A DNA stretch of 63,580 nt, counting the filler, from an uncultured Methanosarcinales archaeon (GTDB lineage Archaea > Nanobdellota > Nanobdellia > Woesearchaeales > CAYVYK01), in NCBI GenBank assembly GCA_964455675.1. It is 5 parts of 4 records of this genome, joined end to end, with 100 filler letters (N's around TTAATTAATTAA, not from the genome) between each part and the next. Parts side by side here need not be neighbours in the genome. Positions count along the whole stretch, not along the records: positions 45,588 to 63,580 come from CAYVYK010000020.1; 4 more parts are not named here. One strand, written 5' to 3'. How positions within the stretch are numbered: the stretch's first letter is position 1; every line of letters begins with the position of its first letter. This document shows positions 27,907 through 62,710 of the stretch, one piece after another. A program made the position numbers and the translations under genes. The notes under the pieces are model-generated. The model made no database searches. It saw only the letters and a list, made by a program, of their open reading frames with translations, and was not told the origin of the DNA.

Positions 27907-27908
27907 TC

Positions 27909-29783: not shown

Positions 29784-29792
29784 AGAGAGGAT

Positions 29793-30943: not shown

Positions 30944-31216
30944 ATGCTCGCGGTAATTATCACGGGCACGAACATCCTGGCCACGCTCGAGGGGCTATTG
31001 TTCCTCGCCGGATTCGCAGCTGCAGCCTTTATGGCATTCCACGGTTTCGCGGAAGGATTGGACTACGGCAGCTCGAGGAAGGACAGGGTGATCGCGATCG
31101 TTGTCAGCAGCTTCCTGGTCCTGCTTGGTCTGCTGCTCCTCGACTTCGCGCTGTACATGTTCATCGAGCAGCGACCGATCTTCTACTGGTTCACGGGACA
31201 CAGTATCGGGGCGTAA
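30944..31216 (+). CDS. Small two-TM membrane protein
   Basis: SD AAGGA, island-type codon usage. Confidence 0.7.
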   Translation: MLAVIITGTNILATLEGLLFLAGFAAAAFMAFHGFAEGLDYGSSRKDRVIAIVVSSFLVLLGLLLLDFALYMFIEQRPIFYWFTGHSIGA

Positions 31217-31278
31217 CCGCCACCGATGTTACTAACACAGGGACAAACACAGGGGACAATATTCCCCAAGGAGCATGT

Positions 31279-31839: not shown

Positions 31840-31907
31840 GCACACCCACCGCAGCCAGCGGAGAACGTTTGTACTGATTCACAACTGCAACGAAAGGACA
31901 AGAACAG

Positions 31908-32174
31908 ATGATAATTGCGCAAGGCTGGTTCACATTCGGCAACGTGATCACGTTCATCGTTATGACCATTCTCGCGGCGTGGATCGTGAACAACCTCAAG
32001 ATCCCGAACTACCACATGGTGTGGATCATTCCCGCCGTCTGGGTTCTGTTCGGGATCGCGAAGTTCGTCATCGGCTGGACGCTCGCCGTCCTCGTTCCGA
32101 TCATCGCCATCGCGGCCATCATTGCGGTCGTCCTCCAGATGCAGAAGACCGCAGAAGGGAAGAAGGTGTCATGA
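31908..32174 (+). CDS. Small three-TM membrane protein
   Basis: SD AAGGA; hydrophobic; ATGA overlap with the next gene. Confidence 0.75.
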   Translation: MIIAQGWFTFGNVITFIVMTILAAWIVNNLKIPNYHMVWIIPAVWVLFGIAKFVIGWTLAVLVPIIAIAAIIAVVLQMQKTAEGKKVS

Positions 32175-32713
32175 AGACCACCACGAAGCTCGCGGTCATG
32201 CTCTGCATGCCGCTCCTCGTGTTCTGTCTTGGGGCTGACGGCGGCTGTGAGAATTCCAACGCTACCTTCAAGGACCCGAGCCAGGACGACCTCAAGAAGG
32301 GCGAGAACATCGACATCGTCCGGATGACCGGCGTTGTGATCTCCAAGGAGGTGAATTACTACGTCGGCGACCGGACCGAGACGAAGGAGAAGATCGGCAA
32401 ACCATACTACACGATCGGCATCCGCCGGGACGTGCAGAACACCCAGGCGCCGGCCGAGCTCTTTCACGGGGTCACGCCCGAAGTGTTTGACTCACTCAAC
32501 ATCGACCAGACGCTCCCCACGGACCGGATCTACACACTCGAAGAAGTCGTGCGGCTCGAAGGCAAGATCGTCGACAAGATCGTCGATGGGAACGAGTGGG
32601 GCATCGTCATCAACCAAGGCCTGCGGAACTACAGATACTTCCGCCTCACGCCGAGCGCGTTTTATGACGAACGCATCGGCGTCGGCGCAGAACTGCCACT
32701 GCGGATCGAGTAG
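32171..32713 (+). CDS. Secreted/lipoprotein-like protein with two OB-like repeats
   Basis: Signal peptide ending GADGGC; internal duplication (GVVISK..VTPEVFDSLNIDQTLP / GKIVDK..LTPSAFYDERIGVGAELP). Confidence 0.7.
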   Translation: MKTTTKLAVMLCMPLLVFCLGADGGCENSNATFKDPSQDDLKKGENIDIVRMTGVVISKEVNYYVGDRTETKEKIGKPYYTIGIRRDVQNTQAPAELFHGVTPEVFDSLNIDQTLPTDRIYTLEEVVRLEGKIVDKIVDGNEWGIVINQGLRNYRYFRLTPSAFYDERIGVGAELPLRIE

Positions 32714-32749
32714 TAGCGCGTACACGCGCAGAAAGGATGCATGCATTAG

Positions 32750-33625
32750 ATGTCAAGTATGACAGAATCAATCCACGCAAGTGCTGCGGCACTCGTGGCG
32801 TGCGAACGATTCCTCGGAGAGAATCGCACGTGGATGCCCTATGGCAAACATGCCGACCGACAGACGGCATTCCTCGTTATGTTCGAGCAGGCACGACGCG
32901 AGCTCGGGCAGCTGCCAATCGAGTCCATCGCGGAAATCGGCAACGAGGCGCCGGTCAACGAGTTCCTCGGAAAGAAGGGCGTCGACATTCGTCTGGGCAA
33001 GATCGTGTTCCCGCACATCGCAAGCGCAGCCGTGCTTGACTGCCTGATGACATGGGCAGTTCCTGGCACAAAGTGCAAGCTCCGGCCTGCAGGAAGTGGA
33101 ACCTTCTATCCGGCAGCAAGCATCAAGGGCGGATGCATGGTGTACAAGGTCCGCGGGCACATCGTCGTCTGCATCAGAACGACCGGCGCAGACAAGGTGT
33201 ATCTGACGTGTCCGAACGGCGCACCGGCGAGCAGTCACGAACTCTACGAGATCGGACGAACGCTTGCCAACAGTGAGAACCACGGCGAGCCAAGCGACTT
33301 TTCCGGCGTCCAGTTCCCGATGGTGAACCTGAAGTACCGCCCGGACATCAGCTACCTGCTCGGCCTCACGTGCCCAGACACCAAACTTGGGGTGCCGGGC
33401 GTGATCGAGCAAGCGCTGCAGGAAGTCTCAATACGGATGAACCACCTCGGCGCGCGTGTGAAGGACGCAGCAGCGTTCGAATCCAGAATGCTTTGCGCCG
33501 AGGATCCGTACGTGATCGACCGGCCGTTCGTCGCGACATTCCATCGCGACAATCTCGTGCTGCCGTACATGGTCGCATACTGCGACACGGACTGCTGGGC
33601 GGATCCTGGCGACCTGAACGCCTGA
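32750..33625 (+). CDS. Divergent serpin-like protein
   Basis: C-terminal EQALQEVSIRMNHLGARVKDAAA...YVIDRPFVATF matches the serpin hinge/RCL/DRPF layout. Confidence 0.6.
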   Translation: MSSMTESIHASAAALVACERFLGENRTWMPYGKHADRQTAFLVMFEQARRELGQLPIESIAEIGNEAPVNEFLGKKGVDIRLGKIVFPHIASAAVLDCLMTWAVPGTKCKLRPAGSGTFYPAASIKGGCMVYKVRGHIVVCIRTTGADKVYLTCPNGAPASSHELYEIGRTLANSENHGEPSDFSGVQFPMVNLKYRPDISYLLGLTCPDTKLGVPGVIEQALQEVSIRMNHLGARVKDAAAFESRMLCAEDPYVIDRPFVATFHRDNLVLPYMVAYCDTDCWADPGDLNA

Positions 33626-33677
33626 CCCGCGTTCCACTGGGTCGGCTTTTGAAGCACGTCACTGCCGCACAATCATC

Positions 33678-33836
33678 AGGAGGAAATGTCATGTAACCAA
33701 AAAGTTCCCGCGTAGCACGGGGACGGTAACCTTCTAGGAGGCAACATCATGTAGCATGGAACACTGCAGAGAGGAGGGGACGATTCACCAAGGCCTTTGG
33801 AGGATCTGCCATGTAACCACAGCGAGGGTTGGGACG
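33678..33836 (+). promoter_or_regulatory. Tandem array of three SD + ATG-stop minimal ORFs (~60-nt period)
   Basis: GGAGG-N7-ATGTAA (33691), GGAGG-N7-ATGTAG (33749), GGAGG-N7-ATGTAA (33811); each followed by GGGACG. Confidence 0.75.
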
Positions 33837-33851
33837 GATACGTAATCCATC

Positions 33852-33884
33852 GAGGGGTCTCGCGCGAGCGAGACCCCTCCTTTT
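33852..33884 (+). terminator. Terminator/attenuator-like hairpin with GNRA loop
   Basis: GAGGGGTCTCGC-GCGA-GCGAGACCCCTC-CTTTT directly before the SD of the next gene. Confidence 0.75.
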
Positions 33885-33897
33885 ACAGGAGGCAGCA

Positions 33898-34200
33898 ATG
33901 CCAAACATTGAAGTTCACGGAAGATTCAACAACCCAGACGGAAGCTTCACGGAAGCGTACACCATCTGGTGCGAAGTCGTACGGCGCGTTGCAAGACTGC
34001 CATTCCACAAGGATGCTGTCGTCACGAAGTGCGACTGCACATGCCAAGGATGGAATGACCAGGATGAGTTCGGCATCGAGATGCCGTTCATCAGGATCTG
34101 CGCCACGAAGCGGAGCCAGATCGACGACCTCATCTCATTTCTCTCTGGCATCGCGGACATCGAGATCCTCCCGCTTCAGGAGTTCATCCCGAAGCGGTAG
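33898..34200 (+). CDS. Small protein, possibly tautomerase-like (Pro1)
   Basis: SD AGGAGG; begins MPNIEVHG; fold assignment tentative. Confidence 0.6.
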   Translation: MPNIEVHGRFNNPDGSFTEAYTIWCEVVRRVARLPFHKDAVVTKCDCTCQGWNDQDEFGIEMPFIRICATKRSQIDDLISFLSGIADIEILPLQEFIPKR

Positions 34201-34236
34201 CACACGAGCAAAAACACCTCTATGGAGGACACAGCC

Positions 34237-34665
34237 ATGCGAAGAAAAGGGTTCACCCTCGTCGAGTTGCTGGTAATACTTGCGATCATCGGCCTCCTTG
34301 TCACGATGGTTATCGCAGGAATCAGTAACAAGCGAGAGCAGCTCCAGAAGCAACAAGCGACTCAAGCGACCGAGCAGCCAGCGGCGCTTCCTCCGATCAC
34401 GTTCTCGCTCTGCAACAAGGACCAGGGCGACCTCATCACCGCCGGCGACGTGATCGTCGTGACCTACCGCGGCGATCAGCCGACAGGCATTTACACGTGC
34501 AGACGCGCGCCCGTCAGTTTCGCGCAAGGGTCACTCGAGATCCAACACGTGGAGCGCCTCAAATACCGCGTCGAATACAAACCAGTCCTCGGGACGAAGA
34601 CATACTGGTTCACAGTCGAAAGCGTCCCGTCGGGACTTCAGTTCTTCTTTGACAAGGTCAACTAG
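34237..34665 (+). CDS. Prepilin-type N-terminal cleavage/methylation domain protein
   Basis: MRRKG-FTLVELLVILAIIGLL class III signal peptide with Glu+5; SD GGAGG. Confidence 0.85.
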   Translation: MRRKGFTLVELLVILAIIGLLVTMVIAGISNKREQLQKQQATQATEQPAALPPITFSLCNKDQGDLITAGDVIVVTYRGDQPTGIYTCRRAPVSFAQGSLEIQHVERLKYRVEYKPVLGTKTYWFTVESVPSGLQFFFDKVN

Positions 34666-34701
34666 CTCCGCTCAGCGGCGCACATTCAACGAAAGGACCC
34701 C

Positions 34702-37605
34702 ATGAAAACTCTTATCGTCCTCGTGTGTTGGGCCATTGCCGGATACTTCATCGGCAAGGTCATCAACCAGGCAGCGAAGAAGGAAACGTTCAACCTCAAG
34801 CGCACGATCATCGGCGCGATCTTCCTCGCGCTACCGTTCCCAATCTTCTGGGTGCTCGGCTTCTCTGCCGAAATGTTCTGGTACGACCAGCTCGGGTATA
34901 GCGCAAGGTTCTGGAAGGTGGTGTGGCTCGCGAAACTCACGCCAGTCGTCGCCGCAGTGGTGTACGGCCTCGTGATGTATCTCCTCACACTGCCCCTGCG
35001 CAAATCGCGCTGGACCAGAATCTGGCCGGAGGCCGTCGGCGCACTCACTGGGCTCATCGTGTTTCGGGTCGCGTGGCAGACGGTGATGCAGTACCTCAAC
35101 GGCGTGGACGTCGGCACGGTAGATCCGATCTTTGGCAAGGACATCGGGTTCTACCTCTTCACCCTGCCGATTTACAACATGATGTACTGGTCGCTCATGT
35201 TCCTCGCGAGCGTGCTCGTCGTTATCGGAATCGTGCACCTCGTGGAAGTCCACCCCGAGGACCGGTACTCCAACCGACACAAGATGTACAACGACGATGA
35301 CCGGCGACATTCGTGCAACGTCATTTCGTACAACATCGGTTGGCTCCTCATCGTGATGGCGTTCGGCTTCTGGCTCGACAAGTTCGACCTCCTCACGAGC
35401 AGCTGGGGATCCTTTACCGGCGTCAACTACGTGAGCGACCACGTCCGCATCCCGGCATACGGCATCCTGCAGTGGGTGTGCCTCCTTGCCGGAATCCTGA
35501 TGTTCTTCCCGGCACTGCTGCGCAAGATCCCCTTTGTGGGAAGGTTCAGAGTAGGTGACGAAGCAGAATCAGCAATTCCCGCGGGCTCGATCCTCTGCGT
35601 TCCGGCACTGCTCTTCCTTGTTTACGTGATTGGGTTCTGGGTATGCGCGCCCATCACGTACTACCTTAAGGTCAAGCCGAACGAGTACGCGTGCGAAGAG
35701 CCGTACATCAAACACAATATTGCGTTCACGCGCGCGGCATTCAACCTCGGCCAGGACGTGCTGACTGAGCATGACGTCAAGCTCTCGGATAGGGTCACAG
35801 CCGAAACCGTTCAGAGCTACCAGGATGTCCTCAGTCAAGTACGGCTTCTTGACTGGCGGCCGCACGAAGAAGTTCTGCACGAACTCCAGCGTGGCCGCAC
35901 GTACTACCGCATCGGCGACGTGGACGTCGATCGCTACTGGATTGGCGGGAAGTACACGCAAGTCATGATCGGCCCGCGCGAAATGGACATGAGCGCGCTG
36001 CCCGATGGCGCGAAGACATTCATCAACACACACATGCGCTACACGCACGGCCTTGGCGTATCCGTCGCGAGCGTTAGCGACTTTGAGGACTGCAGAGCGA
36101 AGCTACTCGTGCGCGACGTTCCGCCCAAGACGGACCATCCGGAACTTACCGCCCCCGAGTGGAGCATCTACTTTGGCGAGCTCACGGACAGCCACGTGTA
36201 CGTGAACACGACCGAACAAGAACTCCACTACGAAGGCGACAACGTGGATCACTTCTCCACGTACCAGGGACTTGGTGGTGTACCAATTACGAGCTTCTGG
36301 CGAAGGCTCGTCTTCGCGTACGAGCTCGACGGCCTCCGGCTCTTCACAGCGAGTGCTATCACGCCGCAAACGCGCGTCATGTACCAACGGAACATTTTCT
36401 CACGCGCAAAGAGCCTCGCGCCATTCCTGACGTATGACCAAGACCCGTACGTGGTGATCGCTCCTACTGTCACGAACATGGATGGAACGGACGAGATCAA
36501 CGCTCCGCACGGGCTCTTCTACATCATGGACGCGTACACATCAAGCACCCACTACCCATACTCAGAACCGTACAGGACGCATGAACACGACGGGAACCCG
36601 AACAAGGATCTCGACGGCGTCAATTACGTCCGCAATTCGGTGAAAGTGGTGGTCGATGCGTACAACGGCACGGTGAAGTTCTACATCAGTGACCCTACCG
36701 ACCCCATCATCCAGATGTGGTCGAAGATTTTCCCCGGGATGTTCCTGCCGCTGTCGGTCATGCCAAGCGAACTGCGCGCTCACATCCGCTATCCCGAGGA
36801 CATCTTCAACGTCCAGGCACGGATGTACGCACGCTACCACATGACAAATCCGAGCAGGTTCTACTCTGACTCGGATCGGTGGGTTCGTGCGACAGAGACA
36901 TACCATCAGGAATCGCAGCACCGCGTGCAGCCTTACTACATCATGTGGCGAGCACCTGAATCCCAGCAACCCGAGTACGTGATCATGGCTCCCTTCACGC
37001 CAAAGGACACGAACGTGATGGTGGGGTGGCTTGCCGCGCGGTGCGATCAGCCTAACTACGGCCAGCTGCTCGCGTACAAGTTCCCGAAAGAGCAAACGGT
37101 GCTCGGCCCGCAGCAATTTGACGCGCGGATGGACCAGCACGACCAGCTCTCCGCGCTCTTCTCACTCTGGGACCAGAAGGGCAGCACAGTCATCCGTGGG
37201 AATGTCCTTGTGATTCCGCTCGGCGACACGTACATCAACGTGAAGCCGATCTACCTCCAGGCGCAAGGAGCTAAGTTCCCGGAACTCAAACGCGTGGTCG
37301 TCGGCAACTCGAGTGGCATCGGCTTTGGCACGAGCCTCTCGGAAGCGCTTGATGACTTCCTCCACAAGGGAGGTTTGCGCGGTGAGTCCCGGATCGTCGG
37401 GATGCCCGAGAGCATCAACGTCGAGAGCAGGGGCTTCGCCCTTCCGACGGAGGTCGCTCAATACCAGACCCTCGCGACTGCCGCGAACAAAGCGTTTGAG
37501 CAATACCTGAAGCTGCAGGGCGAAGGTAAGTTCGTCGAGGCAGCACAGGAACTCGAGAAGGTCCGAGGGTACCTGCAGCAACTGACTGGACAAGCCGGCG
37601 ACTAG
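34702..37605 (+). CDS. UPF0182 (COG1615) membrane protein
   Basis: DPIFGKDIGFYLFTLP, NIAFTRAAF, DVDRY, YTHG, IYFGE, DPY, NYVRNSVKVVVDAYNG, RYP, IRGN. Confidence 0.93.
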   Translation: MKTLIVLVCWAIAGYFIGKVINQAAKKETFNLKRTIIGAIFLALPFPIFWVLGFSAEMFWYDQLGYSARFWKVVWLAKLTPVVAAVVYGLVMYLLTLPLRKSRWTRIWPEAVGALTGLIVFRVAWQTVMQYLNGVDVGTVDPIFGKDIGFYLFTLPIYNMMYWSLMFLASVLVVIGIVHLVEVHPEDRYSNRHKMYNDDDRRHSCNVISYNIGWLLIVMAFGFWLDKFDLLTSSWGSFTGVNYVSDHVRIPAYGILQWVCLLAGILMFFPALLRKIPFVGRFRVGDEAESAIPAGSILCVPALLFLVYVIGFWVCAPITYYLKVKPNEYACEEPYIKHNIAFTRAAFNLGQDVLTEHDVKLSDRVTAETVQSYQDVLSQVRLLDWRPHEEVLHELQRGRTYYRIGDVDVDRYWIGGKYTQVMIGPREMDMSALPDGAKTFINTHMRYTHGLGVSVASVSDFEDCRAKLLVRDVPPKTDHPELTAPEWSIYFGELTDSHVYVNTTEQELHYEGDNVDHFSTYQGLGGVPITSFWRRLVFAYELDGLRLFTASAITPQTRVMYQRNIFSRAKSLAPFLTYDQDPYVVIAPTVTNMDGTDEINAPHGLFYIMDAYTSSTHYPYSEPYRTHEHDGNPNKDLDGVNYVRNSVKVVVDAYNGTVKFYISDPTDPIIQMWSKIFPGMFLPLSVMPSELRAHIRYPEDIFNVQARMYARYHMTNPSRFYSDSDRWVRATETYHQESQHRVQPYYIMWRAPESQQPEYVIMAPFTPKDTNVMVGWLAARCDQPNYGQLLAYKFPKEQTVLGPQQFDARMDQHDQLSALFSLWDQKGSTVIRGNVLVIPLGDTYINVKPIYLQAQGAKFPELKRVVVGNSSGIGFGTSLSEALDDFLHKGGLRGESRIVGMPESINVESRGFALPTEVAQYQTLATAANKAFEQYLKLQGEGKFVEAAQELEKVRGYLQQLTGQAGD

Positions 37606-37641
37606 TCGCTGACGCAATACGGCCCTGTTTCGCTTCCACAC

Positions 37642-37690
37642 AGCAAGCCAGATTCTTCCCTATGAGGGTTGAGTTTGGCTTGCTTTTTTT
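37642..37690 (+). terminator. Intrinsic terminator ending the island operon
   Basis: AGCAAGCCAGATTC...GAGTTTGGCTTGCT followed by a T tract. Confidence 0.8.
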
Positions 37691-37723
37691 GGTATTTTAT
37701 TTCTATATGGTAATTATTTATGG

Positions 37724-37769
37724 AAAAAAAGGGGATACCCCCGGGCGAATGGCTCGCCAAGGGGTATCC
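37724..37769 (-). terminator. Convergent intrinsic terminator
   Basis: Minus strand GGATACCCC...GGGGTATCC then CC and T7. Confidence 0.7.
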
Positions 37770-37781
37770 GAACGGTCAGAC

Positions 37782-37982
37782 CTACACGCTCAACGGAGTC
37801 CTCCCACGAGATGTGCACCTGCGCGACTGACGATGGGGTCCCACGTAGGCATCGCAGCACTTGTCACAGAAGGTGCGACCCCTCGGAACCTTGCGCTTGC
37901 ACAGGCGACACGTGGGCTCGGGCTCTGATGTGGTTTCCTTGCCCTGATTTCCGTTTGAGCTAGAAGGAACACAAACCGTCAT
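37782..37982 (-). CDS. Small Zn-finger protein
   Basis: CRLC-x10-CDKC; purine-rich leader and a terminator directly downstream. Confidence 0.55.
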   Translation of the reverse strand: MTVCVPSSSNGNQGKETTSEPEPTCRLCKRKVPRGRTFCDKCCDAYVGPHRQSRRCTSRGRTPLSV

Positions 37983-38490
37983 CTTCCACTCAATCCTTTC
38001 TGCGGAATCATTCCGCTTGGGACAATTGCCTCTTCTCCCACTCCGACCGTTTCATACCCAATGCTTCCTTACCCACTCCGGAGAGCACCACTACCAGCCA
38101 CGGTAGTATCCAAATTTCTCCCTCACTCGCTAAATTGCCTCATCATAGTACCAACCCCGTTGGGTTACGTGTATGTATACTTCCTCTCGGAAGGTTATGG
38201 TTACCACTAGCAAGAATTAGTACTGCCCAACATCCGAAAAACGATAGTTCTCCGAATTCCAGCAAGTTCCAGGCGTAAGATATGCCCTACCCGCGACACC
38301 CGACCGCAAAGCTTCCGTGAAGCAAAGCTGGAAAGGACCACGATGAACTGGAACGGCGTCAAGCCATCTAAACACAATTAAATTTTTGAAGGCGAAAGGA
38401 GCCACAGTCCCTTAATAAAGGTTTCATTTATATGCAAAAAACCAGGCAATAGCCGAAAGATTCTTATTTGGAAAGAAGGCATCCATTATC

Positions 38491-45587: not shown

Positions 45588-45708
45588 GCCGGTGTAACTT
45601 AGCCTGGTTAGAGTGCCACGCTCATATGCTATGAGCTAAGAGGCAAACGCCGATGACTTAGAGCACGGAGCCACGTGGAAGTCGGGGTTTCAAATACCCC
45701 CACCGGCA
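45588..45708 (+). tRNA. tRNA(CAT), probably elongator Met, with 46-nt 37/38 intron (45627..45672)
   Basis: GCCGGTG acceptor, CCACG-CTCATA[intron]A-CGTGG, GGGGT-TTCAAAT-ACCCC, CACCGGC-A. Confidence 0.88.
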
Positions 45709-45715: not shown

Positions 45716-48112
45716 TCAAGTAAAGAACCCAGGATCGGGGGTTGGTTCCACAGGCCCAATAGAAGGATCTTTGTCATCTATGTGGTCCTCGGAATCCTCG
45801 TGTTCCAATTCTGTGGGGACTGGGTTCGATGTACATATACATGCATGAGATGAGTGGCTCCAGATACACATTTGACTCGGTGGACAGGGCAAAACACGGC
45901 AACTGCATGCCCTGCACGCCCATGTTCCCAAGTCATACGAACAGATTTGGCTCGATGCACAGGGAACATCCGCTTGACAATTATGACAGTTCTCCCCAGG
46001 GTCTACCTCACCATCCGAACAGGAAGTGTATTCAAAGGGCCAGAGAGGATTGTAGCCACCAACACCATCACATTCAGGATCATTCTCATCGATCAGCAGA
46101 TCAAAGTCATTGTCCACACCATCCGAGCAGTCGGGCTTCTCACTCCAGTCATCAGCAAATTGACAACCGTCATCAGACAATCCAGGATCAGGATATCCGT
46201 CACCATTGATATCATAATCAATCAAGCCATCTTCATCATTGTCGATGCCATCCCGACAGTGCGGCAAATCAAAGTCCTCCGCGTCCAAGCTCGGATCGTA
46301 CACGCTCAAGGGAGTACAGCCGCGATCATTCTGGTCGATAGCAGTATCACCATCGTTATCGATACCGTCACTGCACTCGGGCTTTTCCGAGGAGTCAAGA
46401 GCGGAACTGCATTGACTATCCGGAGGATAACCCGCAAAGACGCCATGACCACCATTCCAGTCAACTCCCCCATCAAAATCATCGTCCAGATTATTATTGC
46501 ACTCGGTTCGCTCATCGTGACCTGAAGGGGCCACTGGCAACCCAAGGCAAGGATACAGCTCGCAAGTATCGAGGAAGTTCTGGATGGATGAGGGATCAGT
46601 CATGTCAATCGTAGGCTTATCTATCGTCGGATCCGAGAGATTTGAGAAATATCTGTAGAAAATAATTGGCTCCCCATAATCAAGCATGCCATAGCGCTCG
46701 AGAGCACAGCAGTCACTCTTAAGCCACCGGGCAATCATCATAAAATCAGTCTGATCCGCAGATGCAATACTCGAGTCGATCGCAATTGCACTTGGGAGGG
46801 AATCAATCGCACAACCAGTCTCGTCCGGATCCAGAGCCGTCGGACATGTCACGGGATCCCGCTCACGACCAGGATAGTACATATCATTGAAATACACCCA
46901 ATCAAGGAGAGGCTTATTGAGCGGAGGTTGGCCCACATCAAGCGCAGCATCAGCATTCACAAAGCTTTCAATCCCTAGCAAACCTCCAGGATTAAGCATA
47001 CCATCATCAACAGGAACCGTCCTTCCATAAAACCGCTCGAGAAATGATGGACCGGAAGGAGACGGACGGTAGTAGGAATGACCCGATGGGCCCTCCAAAT
47101 ACGCGGCAAGAGGAGTAACATTCGCAATTCCGGTCCCCGAATCAAGGCTGAGATCGGCATAGATGTACTCGCCGTCCTGCGGGAAACGCTGCACCCGATT
47201 CTGCAGCTTACCACCAGTCATACCAGAGTACAGAGGATCCTGAAGGTTCGTGATCGGAACCTTCACGACAACCTCCTTATCCACAATGCGAATATCCGCA
47301 ACACCCGTACGATCAGAAATGTTCAGACTGTAATACAGCACAAATTCCACGTATCCATACTCACTTTGGCGGACCGTGATATCATACGGGAGGACAGCAT
47401 TTGTATATCCTCTCGACGTAATCGATGCATCATACGGGACAGGAACGACACTCCATGTCCCATCAATTCCTTGACGGTATACCCAGATCATTGGGTCCTG
47501 TACCTTCACACGCTTAACATCCATGTGCACATCAAGCCCTGCTAGGCTACCCTGCTGTGCAACGCTCTCAATCCACTCTGGAAGGGTACTAGGCGTCTGC
47601 AATTCAAACATGGACTGGACGCGCGATCCCGTGGACAATTGGAGTTGGTTATTTTGCGTAATGTTGTACACTATCATAAATTTGGATTTCTCAATCTCAC
47701 CCGTCACAGGATTACGATAGGGAATCTTCGCATTCCATGATGACACTGAATAATTATTTAGCTCAACTACAGGAGCAATACCCGACGTCATCACGCGACG
47801 GACGTACACGCTGATATTCCTTCCACCGTCTGGGACAAACTCCGGCTGATCATTATACGAACTCGCATTCCTGATCCAGTCATTTAAGCCAAGAAGCGCG
47901 CGAAAGCCAGAAATATACACAGCACGCTCAAGATCGCGCTCAATGTTTGTGGAGAGCGACGTCATCGAACGAGCTCGCGACTGCACAGGAACCATCTTAC
48001 TTGAATAGCGCTCAGAATTCGTGATAAGCGCGGCAATAATGACGAGAAGAACTATGAACGAGAGCGTGATGATAGTAAAGACTACACCCCTTTTTGAATA
48101 TACCACACCCAT
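45716..48112 (-). CDS. Large surface protein with class III-like signal peptide and Cys/Asp-rich repeats
   Basis: SKRG-VVFTIITLSFIVLL N-terminus; four C.DG.DND.D..ID...D..C repeats; Cys-rich tail. Confidence 0.85.
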   Translation of the reverse strand: MGVVYSKRGVVFTIITLSFIVLLVIIAALITNSERYSSKMVPVQSRARSMTSLSTNIERDLERAVYISGFRALLGLNDWIRNASSYNDQPEFVPDGGRNISVYVRRVMTSGIAPVVELNNYSVSSWNAKIPYRNPVTGEIEKSKFMIVYNITQNNQLQLSTGSRVQSMFELQTPSTLPEWIESVAQQGSLAGLDVHMDVKRVKVQDPMIWVYRQGIDGTWSVVPVPYDASITSRGYTNAVLPYDITVRQSEYGYVEFVLYYSLNISDRTGVADIRIVDKEVVVKVPITNLQDPLYSGMTGGKLQNRVQRFPQDGEYIYADLSLDSGTGIANVTPLAAYLEGPSGHSYYRPSPSGPSFLERFYGRTVPVDDGMLNPGGLLGIESFVNADAALDVGQPPLNKPLLDWVYFNDMYYPGRERDPVTCPTALDPDETGCAIDSLPSAIAIDSSIASADQTDFMMIARWLKSDCCALERYGMLDYGEPIIFYRYFSNLSDPTIDKPTIDMTDPSSIQNFLDTCELYPCLGLPVAPSGHDERTECNNNLDDDFDGGVDWNGGHGVFAGYPPDSQCSSALDSSEKPECSDGIDNDGDTAIDQNDRGCTPLSVYDPSLDAEDFDLPHCRDGIDNDEDGLIDYDINGDGYPDPGLSDDGCQFADDWSEKPDCSDGVDNDFDLLIDENDPECDGVGGYNPLWPFEYTSCSDGEVDPGENCHNCQADVPCASSQICSYDLGTWACRACSCRVLPCPPSQMCIWSHSSHACICTSNPVPTELEHEDSEDHIDDKDPSIGPVEPTPDPGFFT

Positions 48113-48180: not shown

Positions 48181-48873
48181 TCAGAAGGAATCAACAAATT
48201 CGGTACGTAGAGAGTGGTACAATTCCTTATCCTGAGAAATCAGCTGCAGGCGCGATAGATAGGGTCCACGAGTTGCCAGACGATCGAGCACCTTCTGCAT
48301 TGCAACACGCGCTTCACTGTGGATCGCACCGATTTGGCGAATGGTGAAGTCGAGCTCGGAAGCACGACCAATCGCCCGATGCCAAGCCTCACGCTCAATC
48401 CCAAGCACGATCTTTACGTCGGCTAACTTCATATCGCGGTCCCGACGGTTCACCCTCCACATTGCCCACTCTTCTCTCGTCACAGTCCATGGGCTCTTGT
48501 AGTAATAATCCCACGCATGACCATACTCATGGAGCATCGTTGAAGGAAGGTTCACGTCCTGACAGAAATTTGGCAAATCGATACACTCCTGATGATGATC
48601 ATAGGTGCCGTGGGATGTCGGCACAAAACCATTCGTTCCCCTCCGTTCATACGCCCATACACCCATCCCTTGAGGCAAACCATGCAGAAGCGATACACCG
48701 GTCTCCTCAATCACGAGATCGGAAAGCTCGTGCTTCCACACATAGGTATCCTCCTCCCACGCATTCGTAAACCAATGCTTCATCCTCTTTTGAGTAAACG
48801 TGGCTCGCAGATCCCCATGCCATTTCGTGTGCAGTATTCCTGGATTCATCATCACGTGGAACTTTGGATACAT
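48181..48873 (-). CDS. Hypothetical protein with zincin-like HExxH motif
   Basis: TMLHEYGHAWD followed by ..EREAW. Confidence 0.65.
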   Translation of the reverse strand: MYPKFHVMMNPGILHTKWHGDLRATFTQKRMKHWFTNAWEEDTYVWKHELSDLVIEETGVSLLHGLPQGMGVWAYERRGTNGFVPTSHGTYDHHQECIDLPNFCQDVNLPSTMLHEYGHAWDYYYKSPWTVTREEWAMWRVNRRDRDMKLADVKIVLGIEREAWHRAIGRASELDFTIRQIGAIHSEARVAMQKVLDRLATRGPYLSRLQLISQDKELYHSLRTEFVDSF

Positions 48874-48976: not shown

Positions 48977-51289
48977 TCACGGCTTTTGGATCAAGGGAAG
49001 AATGTCGATACCGCTATTGTGCAAGATGGCAAGGGCGTCACAGCAGTACCTGCTTTCCACGTAGCACTTGGTGCACAATTCCTCAGATTCCCGATAGGAT
49101 TTATGCAACGACCAATCATGCTCACCATTCCTTAGCGCAGCTTTACTCTGAACCATGCTCGCAGCGATCCTAAACACTTCCTCATGGAAGGGGTGGTCGG
49201 GAGTGTATTTTATTATCGGGGAGAACTTCTGCACGCCTAGAGGCCTTGGAAGAGCGGAAGCCCGCTCAACACCAAAGAACAAGTGATCAAACGGATTACG
49301 GTCAAGACAGGTGTAGATATTACCCGTGTTCAATCCTGAATCCTTGAGATGACGCAGAATCAATGCACCATACAGGAACGTCTGACGGCGATAATGATGC
49401 TCAGGATAGGGAGTCACACGCTTATTCTTGATATCGATGACGACAACATGATAGGTATCGCCATCTTTCAGGAACATGAACTGATCAGGATGAAATGAAA
49501 CGGAAAAATCACCGGCGGATCCACCCACACGCATGAAGAAGGGAACTTCTGCGTAGGTATCCGAAGAGATGGGCGGGACACCGATCCTTTGAAGCGTGGT
49601 GTAATGCGCAAGGCCTGGTAAGGGCGACGTGGAAAGCTTGTGAGCTGCCGTGCCCGTCACAGCATAGATTGAATCCAAGGATCCAGGAACATGGCTAGCA
49701 AGGAACGCAGCGCGATCCGATGGAGACAATCCCGCAACACACTCCTCCAAAAACCGCGTCTTTTTCGCGGGATCTAGGGAGCCGATGATCGCTTCCGCAG
49801 GACAAACGCGCGAACCAATCGTAAACTCAGAACCGCGAAAATCACCCACTTGGGAACTCGTGGGCCACGCAATATTCAGCTGATGCGGAAAGACAATCTG
49901 AAACCCCCGAATTTCCTCCTGCCATTTCCTATTAGTCTTGTTTGTCACGCGGTCGCCAAGATAGATGGAAGGGTCAGCAAGGAAAAATTCAACTGTTCTT
50001 GGCTCCCTGCGCTTGTAAGCTACCCCACGATCCCTCGCAAAGCGCGCGAGCAGGTCCTGCTCTATTGGAGAGAGACACTGCTCGAACACGTCCTCAATAT
50101 TTGGGCGCATATGCAGCGCTTCAGGCTCAAGAAGGAGGAAGGGATATTTTTCTGAAGGAGCGTAATCAATGACCTGCTTTTGCGACGAATACCTCGTTCG
50201 GGCAGGCGCAGGAACCCGATCAGGTGATATAGCGCGTCTGCGATGCTGAAAGATACCGAACAACCGCTCCATCGAGGAAGGATGCGCGATACCTCTCTCG
50301 GTGTACCCCTGAGGGTCCTTTGCAGTCGCCATGGGACCTTTGCAACCCCCGACAAACTCAAAAGTCAGAGGAACATCATGCATCGCAAGCGCGTACTTCT
50401 CAGCCTTGCGAAGAATGTGTGCGGCAACCGACGTCTTCTCCGCAAACACTTGAACATGCCGCAGGCCATGCTCATGAAGCTTGTCTATGCACTTTGGCCA
50501 CAGTTGACCGAGCAGAAGACCATACTTTAATGCAAGAAGTTCCTTTGCGAGGTATGTCTCACGCTGACGGTATTTCAGATATTCTTCCGCATCCTTGCAT
50601 CCCGTACGGGAAAACTCAGTTCGTACCAACTCCCAAGACGAAGGAACCGCAGGATTAAAGAGGTCAGGCGATACGCGCATCAATCCCAAACGATCCGAAA
50701 AATCATCAGCCTTTCGGAAGTCTGCAAGACTGTACCCATCCCACACTGTATCGTCCAGGACCGCACACTCAAGACCATACGGGCCGTTCCGATCAGAAAA
50801 CACCATCGGAAAATCTACGCAGGAAAGAGGCCAGAAGAGATACTCATCAAGAACTTCCTTAGGAAAGACTGCACGTTCATCGGGAGCATGATGAAGCACG
50901 GTTCCCGGAGCTACCTGCAGAAGGAGCGACGTCGGAATGCAGGAGTTTGAGAATGGATCAAGCCACTCCTTACCTCTACCACCAAACTCGGTGAGCGCAA
51001 GACCATTCATCATCACGAGCACCTTTCCCTCAAGAGAGGAAAGGTCCCTCGCGAGATTTGCCTCATGCAAGCGGTACATATCATGACGCGCGAGCAATCG
51101 TTCATCTACCGCGAGCGCAGACTCAAAAACACGCGGACAGGGATCGTTACCCTTGCGGCAAGCTGGCGGGAGTATCAATTCATCCCAGATGCGTTCGGGC
51201 GGAACATTGAACGAATCAAAAACACCCGAGGAAATGTGCAACAGGCTATAGAGCCGCTTGATACTCCGTATCGTATCGACATCAACCAT
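48977..51289 (-). CDS. Large protein with C-terminal Cas4/AddB-like PD-(D/E)xK nuclease
   Basis: VCP, GTAAH, AEVP, FHPD, IDIK, QTFLY, CTKC...CC; start taken at ATG 51289. Confidence 0.75.
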   Translation of the reverse strand: MVDVDTIRSIKRLYSLLHISSGVFDSFNVPPERIWDELILPPACRKGNDPCPRVFESALAVDERLLARHDMYRLHEANLARDLSSLEGKVLVMMNGLALTEFGGRGKEWLDPFSNSCIPTSLLLQVAPGTVLHHAPDERAVFPKEVLDEYLFWPLSCVDFPMVFSDRNGPYGLECAVLDDTVWDGYSLADFRKADDFSDRLGLMRVSPDLFNPAVPSSWELVRTEFSRTGCKDAEEYLKYRQRETYLAKELLALKYGLLLGQLWPKCIDKLHEHGLRHVQVFAEKTSVAAHILRKAEKYALAMHDVPLTFEFVGGCKGPMATAKDPQGYTERGIAHPSSMERLFGIFQHRRRAISPDRVPAPARTRYSSQKQVIDYAPSEKYPFLLLEPEALHMRPNIEDVFEQCLSPIEQDLLARFARDRGVAYKRREPRTVEFFLADPSIYLGDRVTNKTNRKWQEEIRGFQIVFPHQLNIAWPTSSQVGDFRGSEFTIGSRVCPAEAIIGSLDPAKKTRFLEECVAGLSPSDRAAFLASHVPGSLDSIYAVTGTAAHKLSTSPLPGLAHYTTLQRIGVPPISSDTYAEVPFFMRVGGSAGDFSVSFHPDQFMFLKDGDTYHVVVIDIKNKRVTPYPEHHYRRQTFLYGALILRHLKDSGLNTGNIYTCLDRNPFDHLFFGVERASALPRPLGVQKFSPIIKYTPDHPFHEEVFRIAASMVQSKAALRNGEHDWSLHKSYRESEELCTKCYVESRYCCDALAILHNSGIDILPLIQKP

Positions 51290-51380
51290 GCACGGCGAGG
51301 GTGTGGACAAGTATTTTAAAGGTTCCCCTATTACTCACTTACGGATAGTAAATATTTACGCAAGTATTTTGGTGGAAGGC

Positions 51381-53996
51381 ATGCAAGCACTCCTCATCAG
51401 CGCACGACGAGACACAAGCATCAAAGGCAGGAAAGAGTCCAGAATAACAGTTCTTGGAAGGCAACTCATTCCTCAAGATGGCGTTCTCTCCATTGGCCCA
51501 AGCATCGAACTTGAAGCCCGCGTGCGGCACCTCATCCCAACACGGGCCGTCCACGCATCCCTTCGAGTGCAAGATCTCGTGGAAGAAGGAAAACACCAAA
51601 TCGAAAAGATGTACCCAAGCTATGCGGAGACTGTGAGAGACATCGTTCTTTACGGACCATTCCCCGTAGGAAACGGCCACGTCAGGTACCAACTTGCGAT
51701 GCCACACCTTCCCACAACGATCCAGATCATGTGCTTTGGAGACCCATTCCAAAGCGCATCACCGCACAACGCAATCACGCAAGTCATCAACAGGAGACTA
51801 GCCATCCCGTACTCGATCGCAGAATATGAGGACGGACGAATCACCAAGATAGCTCGACCTGCAGATGTCGGTCTACTGCTGCGCGGAACATCCGTCACGT
51901 TCGATGAAGAAACACACAACTGGCAGACACTTCGGATCATGACGGACCTCGCGGAACTGACGAATGAAACAATAGATGCCATGTACGAGGCAACGCATGA
52001 CACGCATCATAAGATCCTTGAGCGCATGACACGACGGGACAAGGAACGAGCACTTGAAGATGTCGCAAACCTTGCGAGGGATGAACGCGTCACGATCCTT
52101 GCCGCAGAATATGGTGAGGAGGGGGTGCTCTTTACGACACTTGACGCAGGAACTGACACGATCATGGTGGATGTCAACGGGAAGAGCACGCGCTACAGGA
52201 TTGTGCGACTCAACGACACCAGGGAGATACAATCGGCGTTTGAACAGTACGTCGCAACGCACGATCCGCTCGAGATCGTAGGGTACAACCACCAGAAATT
52301 CGACATCATGAAGATCGGGGAAATCACCGGCGAGCGACTAAGGATTGGCACTCAAGGAAGGAAAGCACGAATCGTTTCAGGAAGCAATTTCCTCATGTAT
52401 CTTGACGTACCCGGCCGCGTGGTGCGCGACCCATTCCCCTACCACCAGCATCGCGGAAAGACAGTGAACAACAAACTCGCGACAGTGGCACACGATGTGC
52501 TCGGCATCCCCACACAGAAAGACATGACCCACGCCGAAGTCGCGATCATGACACGCATCGCAGAAGAATCGCAGGACGCGACAGAGAGGCAGAAGAGCGC
52601 GCACAAACTCCTGACATATTGCGCAAAAGACGTCATGATCACAGGGCAGATCGCGGACGCGGAACGAGAAGAGCATTATCGGCTCGCCCGATTTCACGCT
52701 TCGCCATGCAGCAGGATCAACACGGTATCACTGCGCAAACTTATCGAGGATGACTGGACGCGATGGCACGTGGAAAGGTATGGCAATTATCCACAAAAAA
52801 ATGTATCACGGACAGACTCATGCGAAGGAGCGTGGAACGCGTTTGACAGCGCCGCATGGGTTGCACGGCAGCTCCAGACACATCACAAGCATGACCGTTT
52901 CTTCTCCCCGGAACAAGGACTAAAAGAAGGCCACCTGATCGCATTCTTCCCGCTCACCAGGTTCTACGCACAAGAAATGAACGCACATCCGCGATTCCAA
53001 GAACTGCTTGCATTCATTTCGCAGGACAGCGATCCCAAACGACGGACAAGGATGAATCAAGATCTTGAAGCGTACGCAGAATGGCCAATCTTCCAAATGA
53101 TCGCGGACAGTCCAGGACCACTCCAGCTCGTCGACCGCGTTTCCCCCGAAGCGGACAGAGCATACTCACGCTGGTTTGGAGGGAGCGCACTCCTGAAGAA
53201 ACACATCGACGCATGGCACGAATTCCTCACAAAGGTCCAAGGCGATTTTCGCGGCATGAATGTCATCAATAGGAGCGACTTCCTGTACGTTGTCCTATCA
53301 GAAGCGCTAGATACAATTCCAACCGGAGCGGTATACCTTGGAAGGGGAAGATTCCTGTCCGGAAATCCCGGAAGATTTGTTGCGCTCATCGACGGACAGT
53401 ACATCAGCCCAGGCATCATGGACTTTGCGTCACAGAAGGGCGATCGGAACTCGTACACACGCGAGTTTAGCACAGGATTTATCGACCGTGCACTCGTACA
53501 GGATGATGCCGCAGGCGCACTTGCATTCGTCGACGAGCAATGCAAGAGATTCTGGAATGATGCGGCAGACCTCACATATACGCGCACCCTGCGGAGGGAC
53601 CCTCATCACTTCTCGCGCCGCGCACAAGCAGGGTATGTCGATATCGTCGCACGCATGGACGCGCGAAGCGGGGATGAAGTCCAGTATCACTATGAAAAGG
53701 ATGAACTAGCGAGCAAATACTTCGGCATCCAAACAGACGCGCGGGAAGCACAACTGAAACGACATGAACAGTACCTGAACGAACTCGCACATTGGGAACA
53801 GCACCAAAAGGAAGGCGGAAGCCTCTTTCCAAAACCGGAAGCTGTAGAAAAACCACAGCAGCACGAAGGATTCCTGAGGGAACTCGTGATGATGAGGTTC
53901 CCCGTAGATTACGGGTCAGCAGAAGCACAGGCACTTCATGAAATTCTCTCAGGGCGCGGAACGGCAGAGCACCACAGAATTCTCACGGAACGCTGA
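51381..53996 (+). CDS. Family-B DNA polymerase homologue with intact 3'-5' exonuclease motifs and apparently inactivated polymerase domain
   Basis: ExoI FDEET, ExoII GYNHQKFD, ExoIII YCAKD; no DxxSLYPS or YGDTDS, but thumb-like DLTYTRTLRRD and SGDEVQY. Confidence 0.78.
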   Translation: MQALLISARRDTSIKGRKESRITVLGRQLIPQDGVLSIGPSIELEARVRHLIPTRAVHASLRVQDLVEEGKHQIEKMYPSYAETVRDIVLYGPFPVGNGHVRYQLAMPHLPTTIQIMCFGDPFQSASPHNAITQVINRRLAIPYSIAEYEDGRITKIARPADVGLLLRGTSVTFDEETHNWQTLRIMTDLAELTNETIDAMYEATHDTHHKILERMTRRDKERALEDVANLARDERVTILAAEYGEEGVLFTTLDAGTDTIMVDVNGKSTRYRIVRLNDTREIQSAFEQYVATHDPLEIVGYNHQKFDIMKIGEITGERLRIGTQGRKARIVSGSNFLMYLDVPGRVVRDPFPYHQHRGKTVNNKLATVAHDVLGIPTQKDMTHAEVAIMTRIAEESQDATERQKSAHKLLTYCAKDVMITGQIADAEREEHYRLARFHASPCSRINTVSLRKLIEDDWTRWHVERYGNYPQKNVSRTDSCEGAWNAFDSAAWVARQLQTHHKHDRFFSPEQGLKEGHLIAFFPLTRFYAQEMNAHPRFQELLAFISQDSDPKRRTRMNQDLEAYAEWPIFQMIADSPGPLQLVDRVSPEADRAYSRWFGGSALLKKHIDAWHEFLTKVQGDFRGMNVINRSDFLYVVLSEALDTIPTGAVYLGRGRFLSGNPGRFVALIDGQYISPGIMDFASQKGDRNSYTREFSTGFIDRALVQDDAAGALAFVDEQCKRFWNDAADLTYTRTLRRDPHHFSRRAQAGYVDIVARMDARSGDEVQYHYEKDELASKYFGIQTDAREAQLKRHEQYLNELAHWEQHQKEGGSLFPKPEAVEKPQQHEGFLRELVMMRFPVDYGSAEAQALHEILSGRGTAEHHRILTER

Positions 53997-56244: not shown

Positions 56245-56386
56245 CGCCAGGACAGATCAAAGATTTTTAAGCCCTGGCACTGTCTTCGTGCGCTTCGCTC
56301 ACTACGCCAGCGCCAGGATTTGGAACCAGCCTTTCTTTTAGCCTCCCCTACGGGTCGGCAAAAGAAAGCCTGGGGAAAGAAAAAAA
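56245..56386 (-). repeat. tRNA-linked repeats with copies of the tRNA-Ser(CGA) 3' end
   Basis: CGCCAGCGCCAGGATTTG at 56305-56322 duplicates 56387-56404; CGCCAGGA at ~56245; palindromes between them. Confidence 0.85.
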
Positions 56387-56471
56387 TCGCCAGCGCCAGG
56401 ATTTGAACCTGGAATTCCTTGCGGAAAGCGGTTTTCGAGACCGCCGCAGTACCGGATTGTGCCACGCTGGC
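56387..56471 (-). tRNA. tRNA-Ser(CGA)
   Basis: GCCAGCG acceptor, GCGGT-CTCGAAA-ACCGC, long variable arm, CCAGG-TTCAAAT-CCTGG, G73. Confidence 0.93.
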
Positions 56472-62390: not shown

Positions 62391-62546
62391 TAACACAAGG
62401 CACAATGCAGGGATTAATAAGCTTTTGGACGGCCAGCACGCGTTCACGTCCACAAGGGGCTGGGGAACTATCCGTATCACGTGTCAGGCGTTCGGAGCGT
62501 ATTCCCCGTTAGTATTATCATATTCATGTTTAGTATTCAAAGTATG

Positions 62547-62710
62547 ATTACGAGCCTTCGGCGAGCCCTGTTCACAAAGGAATTCTCCATACAATCACAC
62601 TTGTCACTCTTAACATTCAAAATTATTACGAGCCTTCGGCGAGCCCTGTTCCTTGCACAACACGCTCAGGGAACAGGTCGCCTGTTTTTGGATGCGCGGA
62701 AACGGGTATC
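62547..62710 (+). repeat. Two family A repeats
   Basis: TTACGAGCCTTCGGCGAGCCCTGTTC at ~62548 and ~62626; the second is followed by the CCTGTTCC..GGAACAGG hairpin. Confidence 0.88.

Follow-up and report, generated by a model that had tools for sequence, protein, structure and literature searches.

A divergently transcribed gene pair of Woesearchaeota-like archaea encoding a predicted family-B polymerase fold with a preserved exonuclease site and a Cas4/RecB-type nuclease

What can a family-B DNA polymerase (PolB) do when its canonical polymerase motifs are gone, its 3'-5' exonuclease site is kept, and a large nuclease gene is transcribed away from it across a short spacer? This question is raised by a locus at positions 48977..53996 of a 63,580-nucleotide stretch of DNA (hereafter, the window) from an uncultured archaeon (assembly GCA_964455675.1). 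An initial annotation had described the locus as a polymerase-dead, exonuclease-intact PolB beside a Cas4/AddB-like nuclease, and had proposed roles in end processing, nucleotide scavenging or defence. In our analysis, its observations were confirmed and its interpretation was partly supported. Judged by the sequences compared, the two genes form a conserved module, with divergent transcription, in Woesearchaeota-like DPANN archaea. The reading that we favour, a helicase-free pair of nucleases acting on the same DNA ends in genome maintenance, is in our estimate about evenly balanced between right and wrong.

The locus consists of two long divergent open reading frames (ORFs), 48977..51310 on the minus strand and 51258..53996 on the plus strand, which overlap if the TTG starts are taken as listed. 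For the plus-strand gene (gene A), we used the ATG at 51381, since its relatives align from residues 8-11 of the resulting protein (P0006 from residue 8). Gene A thus occupies 51381..53996 (+) and encodes P0001, a PolB-like protein of 871 amino acids plus stop, as supported by the ORF, its translation, relatives, an AlphaFold2 model and Foldseek. For the minus-strand gene (gene B), the ATG at 51289 agrees with the N-termini of homologues, whose alignment begins with a conserved MxxxDT. Gene B (48977..51289, -) encodes the large nuclease P0002, of 770 amino acids plus stop, as supported by the ORF, its translation and orthologues at related loci. The two ATG starts are separated by a divergent spacer of 91 nucleotides (51290..51380). 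All motif strings quoted in the initial annotation were found in both genes in the order given there. They are not chance matches, because the exonuclease residues are invariant in 30/30 sequences and the nuclease and cysteine residues in 8/8.

Gene A: a preserved exonuclease and a decayed palm

Family scans with P0001 alone gave only sub-threshold matches to PolB exonuclease models. NF004421 matched with an E-value of 3.5e-5 and 22 bits (cut-off 570), and PF03175, PF18136 and PF03104 matched with E-values of 0.006-0.065. Word-index homologue searches with both proteins and with the nuclease profile returned the query itself alone, and sequence searches of PDB with P0001 and P0002 singly gave no match. 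Exhaustive HMMER searching recovered 57 relatives of gene A at E<=1e-3, and 24 entries, query counted, at E<=1e-30. Family counts below refer to 58 members (57 relatives and the query), and conservation was scored in columns of a 30-sequence alignment (A1).

The AlphaFold2 model made with the 30-sequence alignment had a predicted local distance difference test score (pLDDT) of 89.1 and a predicted template-modelling (TM) score of 0.87. Foldseek returned 270 PDB matches at E<=1e-3, the best of which were all family-B polymerases aligned over ~860-890 columns. The top match was KOD PolB (E 8.3e-21, probability 1.00). The highest TM-scores, 0.53-0.54, were to P. abyssi PolB in editing mode and P. 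calidifontis PolB, followed by Pol delta and Pol alpha. A gene A profile matched Thermococcales PolB (E 1.5e-14) across the exonuclease (KOD 184-378) and the thumb (KOD 616-681), and also matched the Pol delta thumb (2.7e-7) and E. coli Pol II (5.7e-6). By the predicted structure, gene A is a complete family-B polymerase fold from the N-terminal domain through the thumb, in agreement with the PolB layout that had been read from the sequence.

The N-terminal domain (residues 1-165, 51381..51875, +) was modelled with pLDDT mostly >90 and was included in the full-length Foldseek matches; its boundary is estimated. It is followed by the DEDDy 3'-5' exonuclease domain (residues 166-470, 51876..52790, +), delimited by invariant residues and profile alignments, and by palm and fingers that appear decayed (residues 471-662, 52791..53366, +) according to motif patterns, hhalign and the model. 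A KxY-like strand (PGRF) and the thumb (residues 663-785, 53367..53735, +) were placed by alignments to Pol II, KOD and Pol delta. The strings that the initial annotation gave for the layout up to the thumb were all present: GRFVALIDGQYISPG at 664-678, DRNSYTREF at 688-696, DLTYTRTLRRD at 730-740 and SGDEVQY at 763-769. In an extended hhalign alignment, PGRF faces KKRY of Pol II and LTYTRTLRRD faces LVYRKRLRRP. The protein ends in a family-specific helical tail (residues 786-871, 53736..53993, +) with modelled helices at 786-810, 831-839, 847-856 and 862-870 and a nearly invariant G830. A terminal motif resembling the PCNA-interacting protein (PIP) box is not conserved, the loose pattern occurring in 1/58 members of the gene A family and 0/9 of the gene B family.

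Nine loci carrying gene A orthologues in other genomes, described below, show some variation in length. The PolB-like gene of L008 (2300-5288) is split into two ORFs of 829 and 164 amino acids, for which a frameshift or sequencing error is possible. Those of L002 (9512-12967) and L003 (9278-12946) encode longer versions of 1151-1222 amino acids, with an extra stretch between the exonuclease and thumb matches.

The three exonuclease motifs were identified by motif string and invariance as Exo I (FDEET, residues 174-178, 51900-51914, +), Exo II (GYNHQKFD, 301-308, 52281-52304, +) and Exo III (YCAKD, 413-417, 52617-52631, +). The DEDDy residues D175 and E177 of Exo I, D308 of Exo II, and Y413 and D417 of Exo III were invariant in 30/30 sequences. 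Each of the 8 locus orthologues whose sequence spans these residues retains them; the L007 fragment shows Exo III only. Exo II and Exo III align with those of KOD and E. coli Pol II. Columns conserved at >=90% numbered 23 in the exonuclease, 8 in palm and fingers, 4 in the KxY strand and thumb, 2 in the N-terminal domain and 1 in the tail, and none of the 8 in palm and fingers was acidic. The PF03104 model matched 7/30 and 6/20 relatives and fell below its cut-off in P0001. These conservation patterns indicate that the exonuclease site is preserved by selection and is the best-conserved part of the protein; the initial annotation had called it intact. The domain also carries a family-specific helical insert of ~55 amino acids (residues 180-235). 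At residue 367 (52479-52481), within the exonuclease domain and outside the DEDDy set, P0001 has Ala where 28/30 relatives have Asp (NNKLATV vs NNKLDTV).

The polymerase centre gave the opposite picture to the exonuclease. Canonical motifs A (DxxSLYP), B (KxxxNSxYG) and C (xDTDS) were found in 0/58 members, while the E. coli Pol II control matched all three as well as KKRY. The polymerase model PF00136 matched 0/30 and 0/20 of the family members scanned. Motif A had been described as missing. The canonical motif is indeed absent; however, a probable remnant, WNAFD (residues 485-489, 52833-52847, +), was recognized by the family pattern [FWY]-x-[DE]-[FY]-S and by hhalign. P0001 carries A487 where motif A would have its Asp; 19/30 representatives have D/E there. 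A motif C remnant, NVINRSDFLY (residues 627-636, 53259-53288, +), was placed by extended hhalign and a modelled hairpin. In that alignment VIN-RSDF lies opposite Pol II VIY-GDTD, so that D545 of Pol II faces S632 and D547 faces F634. The first of these columns was acidic in 0/30 sequences and the second in 13/30, with Phe in P0001. The modelled beta-hairpin at 627-632/635-639 agrees with this mapping, as does the independent KOD/Pol delta thumb alignment. An alternative placement of motif A on the strand at 513-522 was rejected, as that strand followed by FPLTRFY forms the hairpin and helix before the fingers.

As aligned, P0001 lacks the canonical polymerase centre, and the family as a whole does not maintain it. 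With A487, F634 and no motif B, P0001 itself is likely to be polymerase-dead, as had been proposed, whereas some orthologues may have residual or altered polymerase activity. Several points weigh against a general loss of polymerase function. The mapping of palm residues comes from pattern matching and greedy local hhalign, the latter with an overall probability of 37% and confident in the exonuclease only; default profile-profile alignment to Pol II, alone or with three phage gp43 sequences, aligned the exonuclease alone. The 9 locus orthologues have acidic residues at the motif A position in 7/9 and at the second motif C position in 9/9, and both metal-ligand positions are acidic in 10/30 representatives. 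In P0001, D489 and D633 adjoin the ligand columns, and a shifted register could therefore restore ligands. PolB2, which was predicted to be inactive, was later reported to polymerise, according to the part of PMC8764526 consulted.

If gene A were a derived but active polymerase, the two genes could serve translesion repair or resect-and-fill, by analogy with that re-evaluation of PolB2. The acidic residues of the orthologues speak for this reading, as does the conservation in the family of the KxY-like strand, the thumb and the basic finger residues K553 and R557. It is opposed by Ala and Phe at the ligand columns of P0001, by a first motif C column that is never acidic, by the lack of one or both acids in 20/30 representatives, by the absence of motif B and SLYP patterns in 58/58 members, and by a palm and fingers less conserved than the exonuclease. 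We regard it as quite unlikely.

Archaeal replicative PolBs (KOD, Tgo, Pfu and P. abyssi), assigned to a B1-3-like clade in the portion of PMC7544198 consulted, resemble gene A in fold, DEDDy motifs, KxY-like strand and thumb sequence. Unlike them, gene A lacks canonical motifs A, B and C, a detectable PF00136 domain and a terminal PIP box, and has the ~55-residue helical insert after Exo I and the C-terminal tail of ~85 residues. Gene A thus retains the fold and the DEDDy exonuclease of an active family-B polymerase and lacks its three polymerase motifs. In active PolBs, palm and fingers are conserved more strongly than the exonuclease, and this order is inverted in gene A.

PolB2/Dpo2 is likewise a PolB paralogue with degraded active-site motifs and adjoining conserved partner genes (PMC4104785). 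Its exonuclease is degraded, with Exo I not conserved and Exo III missing (PMC7544198), unlike the invariant exonuclease of gene A. Its partners are arCOG07300 and an inactivated RadA (PMC4104785), unlike the Cas4-type nuclease described below; gene A is not a PolB2/Dpo2 protein. The contrast with a degraded PolB2 exonuclease, which the initial annotation had drawn, thus agrees with both papers in the portions consulted. The C-terminal half of Pol epsilon, poxvirus F12 and Polinton helicase-PolB fusions are PolB folds in non-polymerase roles (PMC7544198), as proposed for gene A, and the last two have been described as 'inactivated DNA polymerase'. For the C-terminal module of Pol epsilon, PMC2669801 and PMC7544198 describe inactivation of the polymerase and the exonuclease alike, whereas gene A keeps a complete exonuclease site.

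Gene B and its conserved linkage to gene A

P0002 had no Pfam, NCBIfam, PHROG, PADLOC or PDB sequence match. Its family is known from the related loci alone, where 8 orthologues were found; that of L008 is truncated and starts near residue 179. The full-length alignment (A4) therefore has 8 rows including P0002, and A6 has 9 rows, A4 plus the L008 fragment.

A nuclease domain of the Cas4/RecB-type PD-(D/E)XK class with a four-cysteine signature was assigned to residues 480-770 (48980..49852, -) from invariant residues and fold matches. Its motifs are C496, GTAAH (546-550), E581, HPD (600-602), DIK (619-621), QTFLY (636-640), CTKC (739-742) and C750. In A4, C496, G546, H550, E581, D602, D619, K621, Q636, Y640, C739, C742 and C750 were invariant in 8/8 sequences. 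With its acidic and Lys core motifs, QxxxY and a 1+3 arrangement of cysteines, this set corresponds to the Cas4/RecB signature, and the four cysteines presumably form an iron-sulfur signature. The C-terminal cysteines are spaced CX2CX7C, whereas Cas4 and AddB have CX2CX5C.

The AlphaFold2 model of gene B had an overall pLDDT of 64.9, with 70-90 over residues 230-770 and poor values for 1-230. In PDB, the top Foldseek match was ACE1, an Argonaute-associated Cas4-family protein (E 2.4e-3, probability 0.96). It was followed by Cas4 SSO0001, AddB, Cas4-Cas1 (E-values to 0.15), Exo5, MGME1 and RecE. Against BFVD, the named matches were almost all PD-(D/E)XK, Cas4-like, RecB-like or ExoV proteins, with a best E-value of 5.5e-5. 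Among family models, PF12705 matched the C-terminal domains of 2/8 orthologues (best E 1.2e-3) and did not match P0002 itself, and a PDB profile search with the nuclease domain gave nothing relevant. Motifs, cysteines and fold therefore all point to the Cas4/RecB type, as had been claimed for the end of gene B, and no family hidden Markov model reached its threshold.

Upstream of the nuclease lies a conserved N-terminal alpha/beta region of no known family (residues 85-479, 49853..51037, -), defined by invariants in A4 and A6. The residues invariant in A4 are G96, K107, P112, S114, K255, E284, S287, G318, G333, Y376, E388, N397, D400, R427 and E429, and those of them from K255 onward are also invariant in 9/9 rows of A6. 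The model had pLDDT 70-90 for residues 230-480 and was poor for 85-230. Searches of residues 85-479 against Pfam and PDB sequences gave nothing better than E 0.13, and with the threshold relaxed to E<=10, residues 1-479 still showed no helicase or P-loop family in any of 9 orthologues. We noted a beta-strand-EKTS-helix and an hhhhE element, which in our own reading do no more than resemble degenerate Walker motifs; in 2/9 sequences Asn replaces the Lys. Global Foldseek matches of gene B to AdnAB had probabilities of 0.08-0.12. Alternating strands and helices with polar invariants suggest an enzymatic or nucleotide-binding alpha/beta domain. The AddB-like architecture in the initial annotation did not hold: residues 1-480 match no helicase or other family, and the term is therefore unsupported beyond the nuclease domain. 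The nuclease domains of Cas4 SSO0001, ACE1, AddB/AdnAB and Dna2 share with gene B the PD-(D/E)XK core, QxxxY and 1+3 cysteines. Gene B differs from this group in its 770 residues and its 480-residue N-terminal region of no known family, and from Cas4 and AddB in the CX2CX7C spacing.

Related loci were sought in one genome per species with a single family peptide pattern built from the 8 closest sequences; the 9 loci confirmed are therefore a lower bound. Six were labelled Woesearchaeota and three 'Methanosarcinales'. An orthologue of P0002 (tblastn E-values 6e-22 to 9e-87) lay directly upstream on the opposite strand in 8/8 loci with an upstream flank; L007, at 1,871 bases, is too short to show one. 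The initial annotation had named a lack of co-occurrence in other genomes as grounds for giving up its interpretation, and this objection fails because the genes are head-to-head in 8/8 loci. ORF clustering showed that genes A and B alone are common to all loci, and 15 window neighbours of the pair had no homologue in them. The pair was single-copy and stably linked across the genomes examined.

In 28 genome pairs, the identities of the A and B proteins correlate (r=0.96) and differ little: the close pairs gave 74.1 vs 75.1% and 48.9 vs 53.5%, and the window shares 21-30% with the other genomes. These values fit co-inheritance of the two genes at a common rate. Both genes evolve faster than adjacent translation genes, with 49-54% vs 80-89% identity (S6e, eIF2-gamma) between L004 and L006. 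Loci labelled 'Methanosarcinales' (L004, L005) and Woesearchaeota (L006, L008) were 80-96% identical in eIF2-gamma, S6e and ParA, with synteny. Given these conflicting labels and identities, the loci are effectively one DPANN group with about six separate lineages, and one set of labels (L004, L005 and L007 vs L006 and L008) is probably wrong.

The divergence and the spacer length of about 90 nucleotides in the initial annotation were borne out, and its AT-richness proved mild. The GC content is 0.429 vs 0.511 for the window; the enrichment is real but ordinary, because 12% of all 91-nucleotide windows are equally or more AT-rich. ATG-to-ATG spacers of the pair at the related loci range from 55 to 544 nucleotides. 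The spacer contains two A/T 9-mers, 51312-51320 and 51350-51358, each centred 27 nucleotides from the nearer ATG, which in our own reading would fit back-to-back archaeal TATA boxes with leaderless transcripts. On this reading of the spacer, the two genes may be co-regulated, as the initial annotation proposed. The window has a single copy (expected 0.02) of the 11-mer TATTACTCACT, which lies in the spacer at 51329-51339. Across 13 loci the 11-mer has one copy (L009, 9922-9932), in the L009 spacer and in the same orientation relative to the PolB-like gene. Its significance is uncertain because the pattern was picked after being seen.

The linkage could also reflect two enzymes that act separately in DNA metabolism, with no physical cooperation, their genes having no more than a promoter region in common. 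Divergent gene pairs are common. Complex prediction with gene B 172-770 and gene A 471-871, halves that were guessed, scored 0.01 vs a mark of 0.32, a value that speaks neither for nor against binding. On the other side, the head-to-head arrangement is kept in 8/8 loci down to 21-30% protein identity while all other neighbours change. We consider independence of the two proteins rather improbable.

Possible roles at DNA ends

From the folds, the motif conservation and the gene pairing described above, we infer both catalytic activities, the loss of polymerase function, cooperation on one substrate and a cellular role. In the favoured scheme, the dead-polymerase scaffold of gene A would bind a duplex end or a primer-template junction, as a polymerase does in editing mode, and its exonuclease would remove the 3' strand. 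Cas4-family nucleases are 5'-3' single-strand exonucleases or endonucleases, and the Cas4-type domain of gene B might thread and cut the complementary 5' strand exposed by gene A. With no helicase motor, progress would be driven by phosphodiester hydrolysis itself, and both strands of the end would be shortened or processed. The role could be end processing in repair or recombination.

The nearest functional analogy is to AddAB/AdnAB. In AddAB, AdnAB and RecBCD, two nuclease activities, one of them of the iron-sulfur RecB type, attack both strands of a DNA end. Unlike these machines, the pair has no helicase or translocase motor, neither protein having a helicase Pfam match. The second nuclease of the pair would be a DEDDy domain on a polymerase scaffold, whereas AddAB-type machines have a second RecB-type domain.

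The genes around the pair in the window encode transcription factor B, S-adenosylmethionine (SAM) synthetase, a Rad50/SbcC-like ATPase, aldolase, ribulose-phosphate epimerase (RPE), a class II aminoacyl-tRNA synthetase, phosphoglycerate kinase (PGK), CoaBC and phosphofructokinase (PFK). Neighbours at the related loci encode eIF2-gamma, S6e, a ParA/MinD ATPase, a PAN-type AAA protein, an aminoacyl-tRNA synthetase, EF-1alpha, peptidases, a DEAD helicase, a phosphoribosyltransferase and a nucleoside phosphorylase. The window is archaeal chromosome. We prefer a role in genome maintenance because the pair is chromosomal and lies among housekeeping genes; DNA recycling comes a close second and defence third.

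Several points count against the favoured reading. A 3'-5' exonuclease would oppose classical resection, which leaves 3' tails. The Cas4 assignment of gene B lies below Pfam thresholds and its PDB Foldseek E-values are weak (2.4e-3). Residues 1-479 of gene B, being of no known family, could change the functional picture. Shared descent by itself would make the identities of the two proteins correlate.

In DNA recycling, the pair would degrade imported or damaged DNA to nucleotides and feed salvage. Exonucleases acting on linear duplex DNA with opposite polarity would together break it down into mono- or oligonucleotides. DPANN organisms are poor in nucleotide biosynthesis, and the pair is confined, as far as seen, to Woesearchaeota-like genomes. 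A phosphoribosyltransferase gene lies within ~5 kb downstream of the pair in L004 and L006, and a gene for a PNP/UDP-type nucleoside phosphorylase adjoins it in L004. The faster divergence of the pair than of neighbouring translation genes in these two loci was also counted in favour. However, salvage genes lie nearby in one lineage only, represented by 2 of the 8 loci; the pair is accompanied by neither a signal peptide nor an uptake gene, and nothing ties it to imported DNA. Recycling appears to us unlikely, though worth keeping in view.

Defence would cast the pair as a RecBCD-like degrader of foreign linear DNA ends, directed against viruses or plasmids. Cas4-family nucleases do occur in defence systems, ACE1 being the top PDB fold match of gene B, and both proteins diverge quickly relative to their neighbours. 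Look-alike clusters in the Atlas carry viral labels, which is a lead only. Against this, neither gene A nor gene B had a PADLOC or PHROG match, and no cas, integrase, transposase or other defence family was found, at the thresholds used, in 41 window ORFs and 63 locus neighbours. No CRISPR-like array or repeat family was found within the window, and with no cas genes or array nearby gene B was not classed as a CRISPR-associated Cas4. Searches with tblastn gave no match for either protein in 50,697 phage records, and none for the PolB-like protein in 72,556 plasmid records. The single copy, stable linkage and matching divergence of the pair, and the lack of an evident self/non-self discriminator, also argue against defence, which we judge very unlikely. 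Among the three roles in the initial annotation, defence was thus the least supported, given the absence of PADLOC matches, the housekeeping neighbours and the lack of phage or plasmid matches.

More specifically, the pair may represent an undescribed DNA-end machine, in which a PolB run only backwards on an intact DNA-tracking scaffold would be coupled to a Cas4-type iron-sulfur nuclease with a new N-terminal domain. Such a machine would degrade both strands without a helicase, would be lineage-specific in Woesearchaeota-like DPANN archaea, and would serve end processing or DNA recycling. We put this forward tentatively and regard it as more doubtful than probable. The literature searched yielded neither this pair nor an exonuclease-only PolB family, with subscription literature mostly outside the full-text search. 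The pair is undescribed in the consulted portions of PMC7544198, PMC4104785, PMC12926913 and bioRxiv 10.64898/2026.05.13.725050, and four family-specific motif strings were absent from the part of the PMC7544198 supplementary sequence tables that was searched.

Other features of the window and implications for the lineage

Two ORFs adjoin the pair on the gene B side. The nearer (48181-48873, -) encodes 230 amino acids with HEYGH, an HExxH metalloprotease-like motif. The other (45716-48112, -) encodes 798 amino acids, in which a hydrophobic segment near the N-terminus is accompanied by Cys-rich repeats of the 'DGxDNDxD' type. Neither had a Pfam match. At 10324-12369 (+), a 681-residue Rad50/SbcC-like ATPase of the structural maintenance of chromosomes (SMC) type is encoded (AAA_23, SMC_N, SbcC Walker B), so that a Rad50-type end-sensing system is present in this organism at least in part. 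Directly upstream, the ORF at 9902-10369 encodes merely 155 amino acids. The SAM synthetase gene (1006-2163, -) carries the S-AdoMet_synt N, M and C Pfam domains (E 1e-68 to 5e-41), and we take the enzyme to be of the bacterial/eukaryotic rather than the usual archaeal type.

Rfam found five tRNAs in the window. Two of these, at 2-128 (-) and 45588-45708 (+), are ~127 and 121 nucleotides long, were missed by ARAGORN and are presumably intron-containing archaeal tRNAs. A 68-nucleotide tandem unit in 3 copies runs into tRNA-Ser(tga) at 6686-7285, with four partial copies of its 3' end at 6971-7285, and one partial copy of the end of tRNA-Ser(cga) lies 83 nucleotides from that gene (56305-56420). 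These partial copies look like remnants of attachment sites of integrating elements. We considered an integrated element bracketed by tRNA-derived repeats and rejected it, as the tRNA-Ser 3' fragment is copied 83 nucleotides away only and no distant copy flanks the pair.

A block at 24000-38000 has a higher GC content (0.56-0.61 vs 0.45-0.52 elsewhere) and encodes an ATP-binding cassette (ABC) transporter permease and ATPase, an AAA ATPase and a 967-residue UPF0182 protein (E 8e-223). This block may be an island gained by horizontal transfer. A 30-nucleotide element (ATTATTACGAGCCTTCGGCGAGCCCTGTTC-like) forms two pairs ~40 kb apart, at 21687-21786 and 62544-62651, with the copies within a pair 70-78 nucleotides apart.

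The known inactivated PolBs, PolB2 and the C-terminal half of Pol epsilon, have lost or degraded their exonuclease, whereas the gene A lineage keeps it as its polymerase centre decays. This lineage suggests that a proofreading module on a DNA-tracking scaffold can be a function in itself. Gene B supplies a conserved domain of ~400 residues that matches no known family. DNA repair and nucleotide economy in DPANN archaea are poorly understood, and the strict pairing of gene A with a nuclease of the Cas4 type suggests that these organisms have a two-nuclease system working without a helicase.

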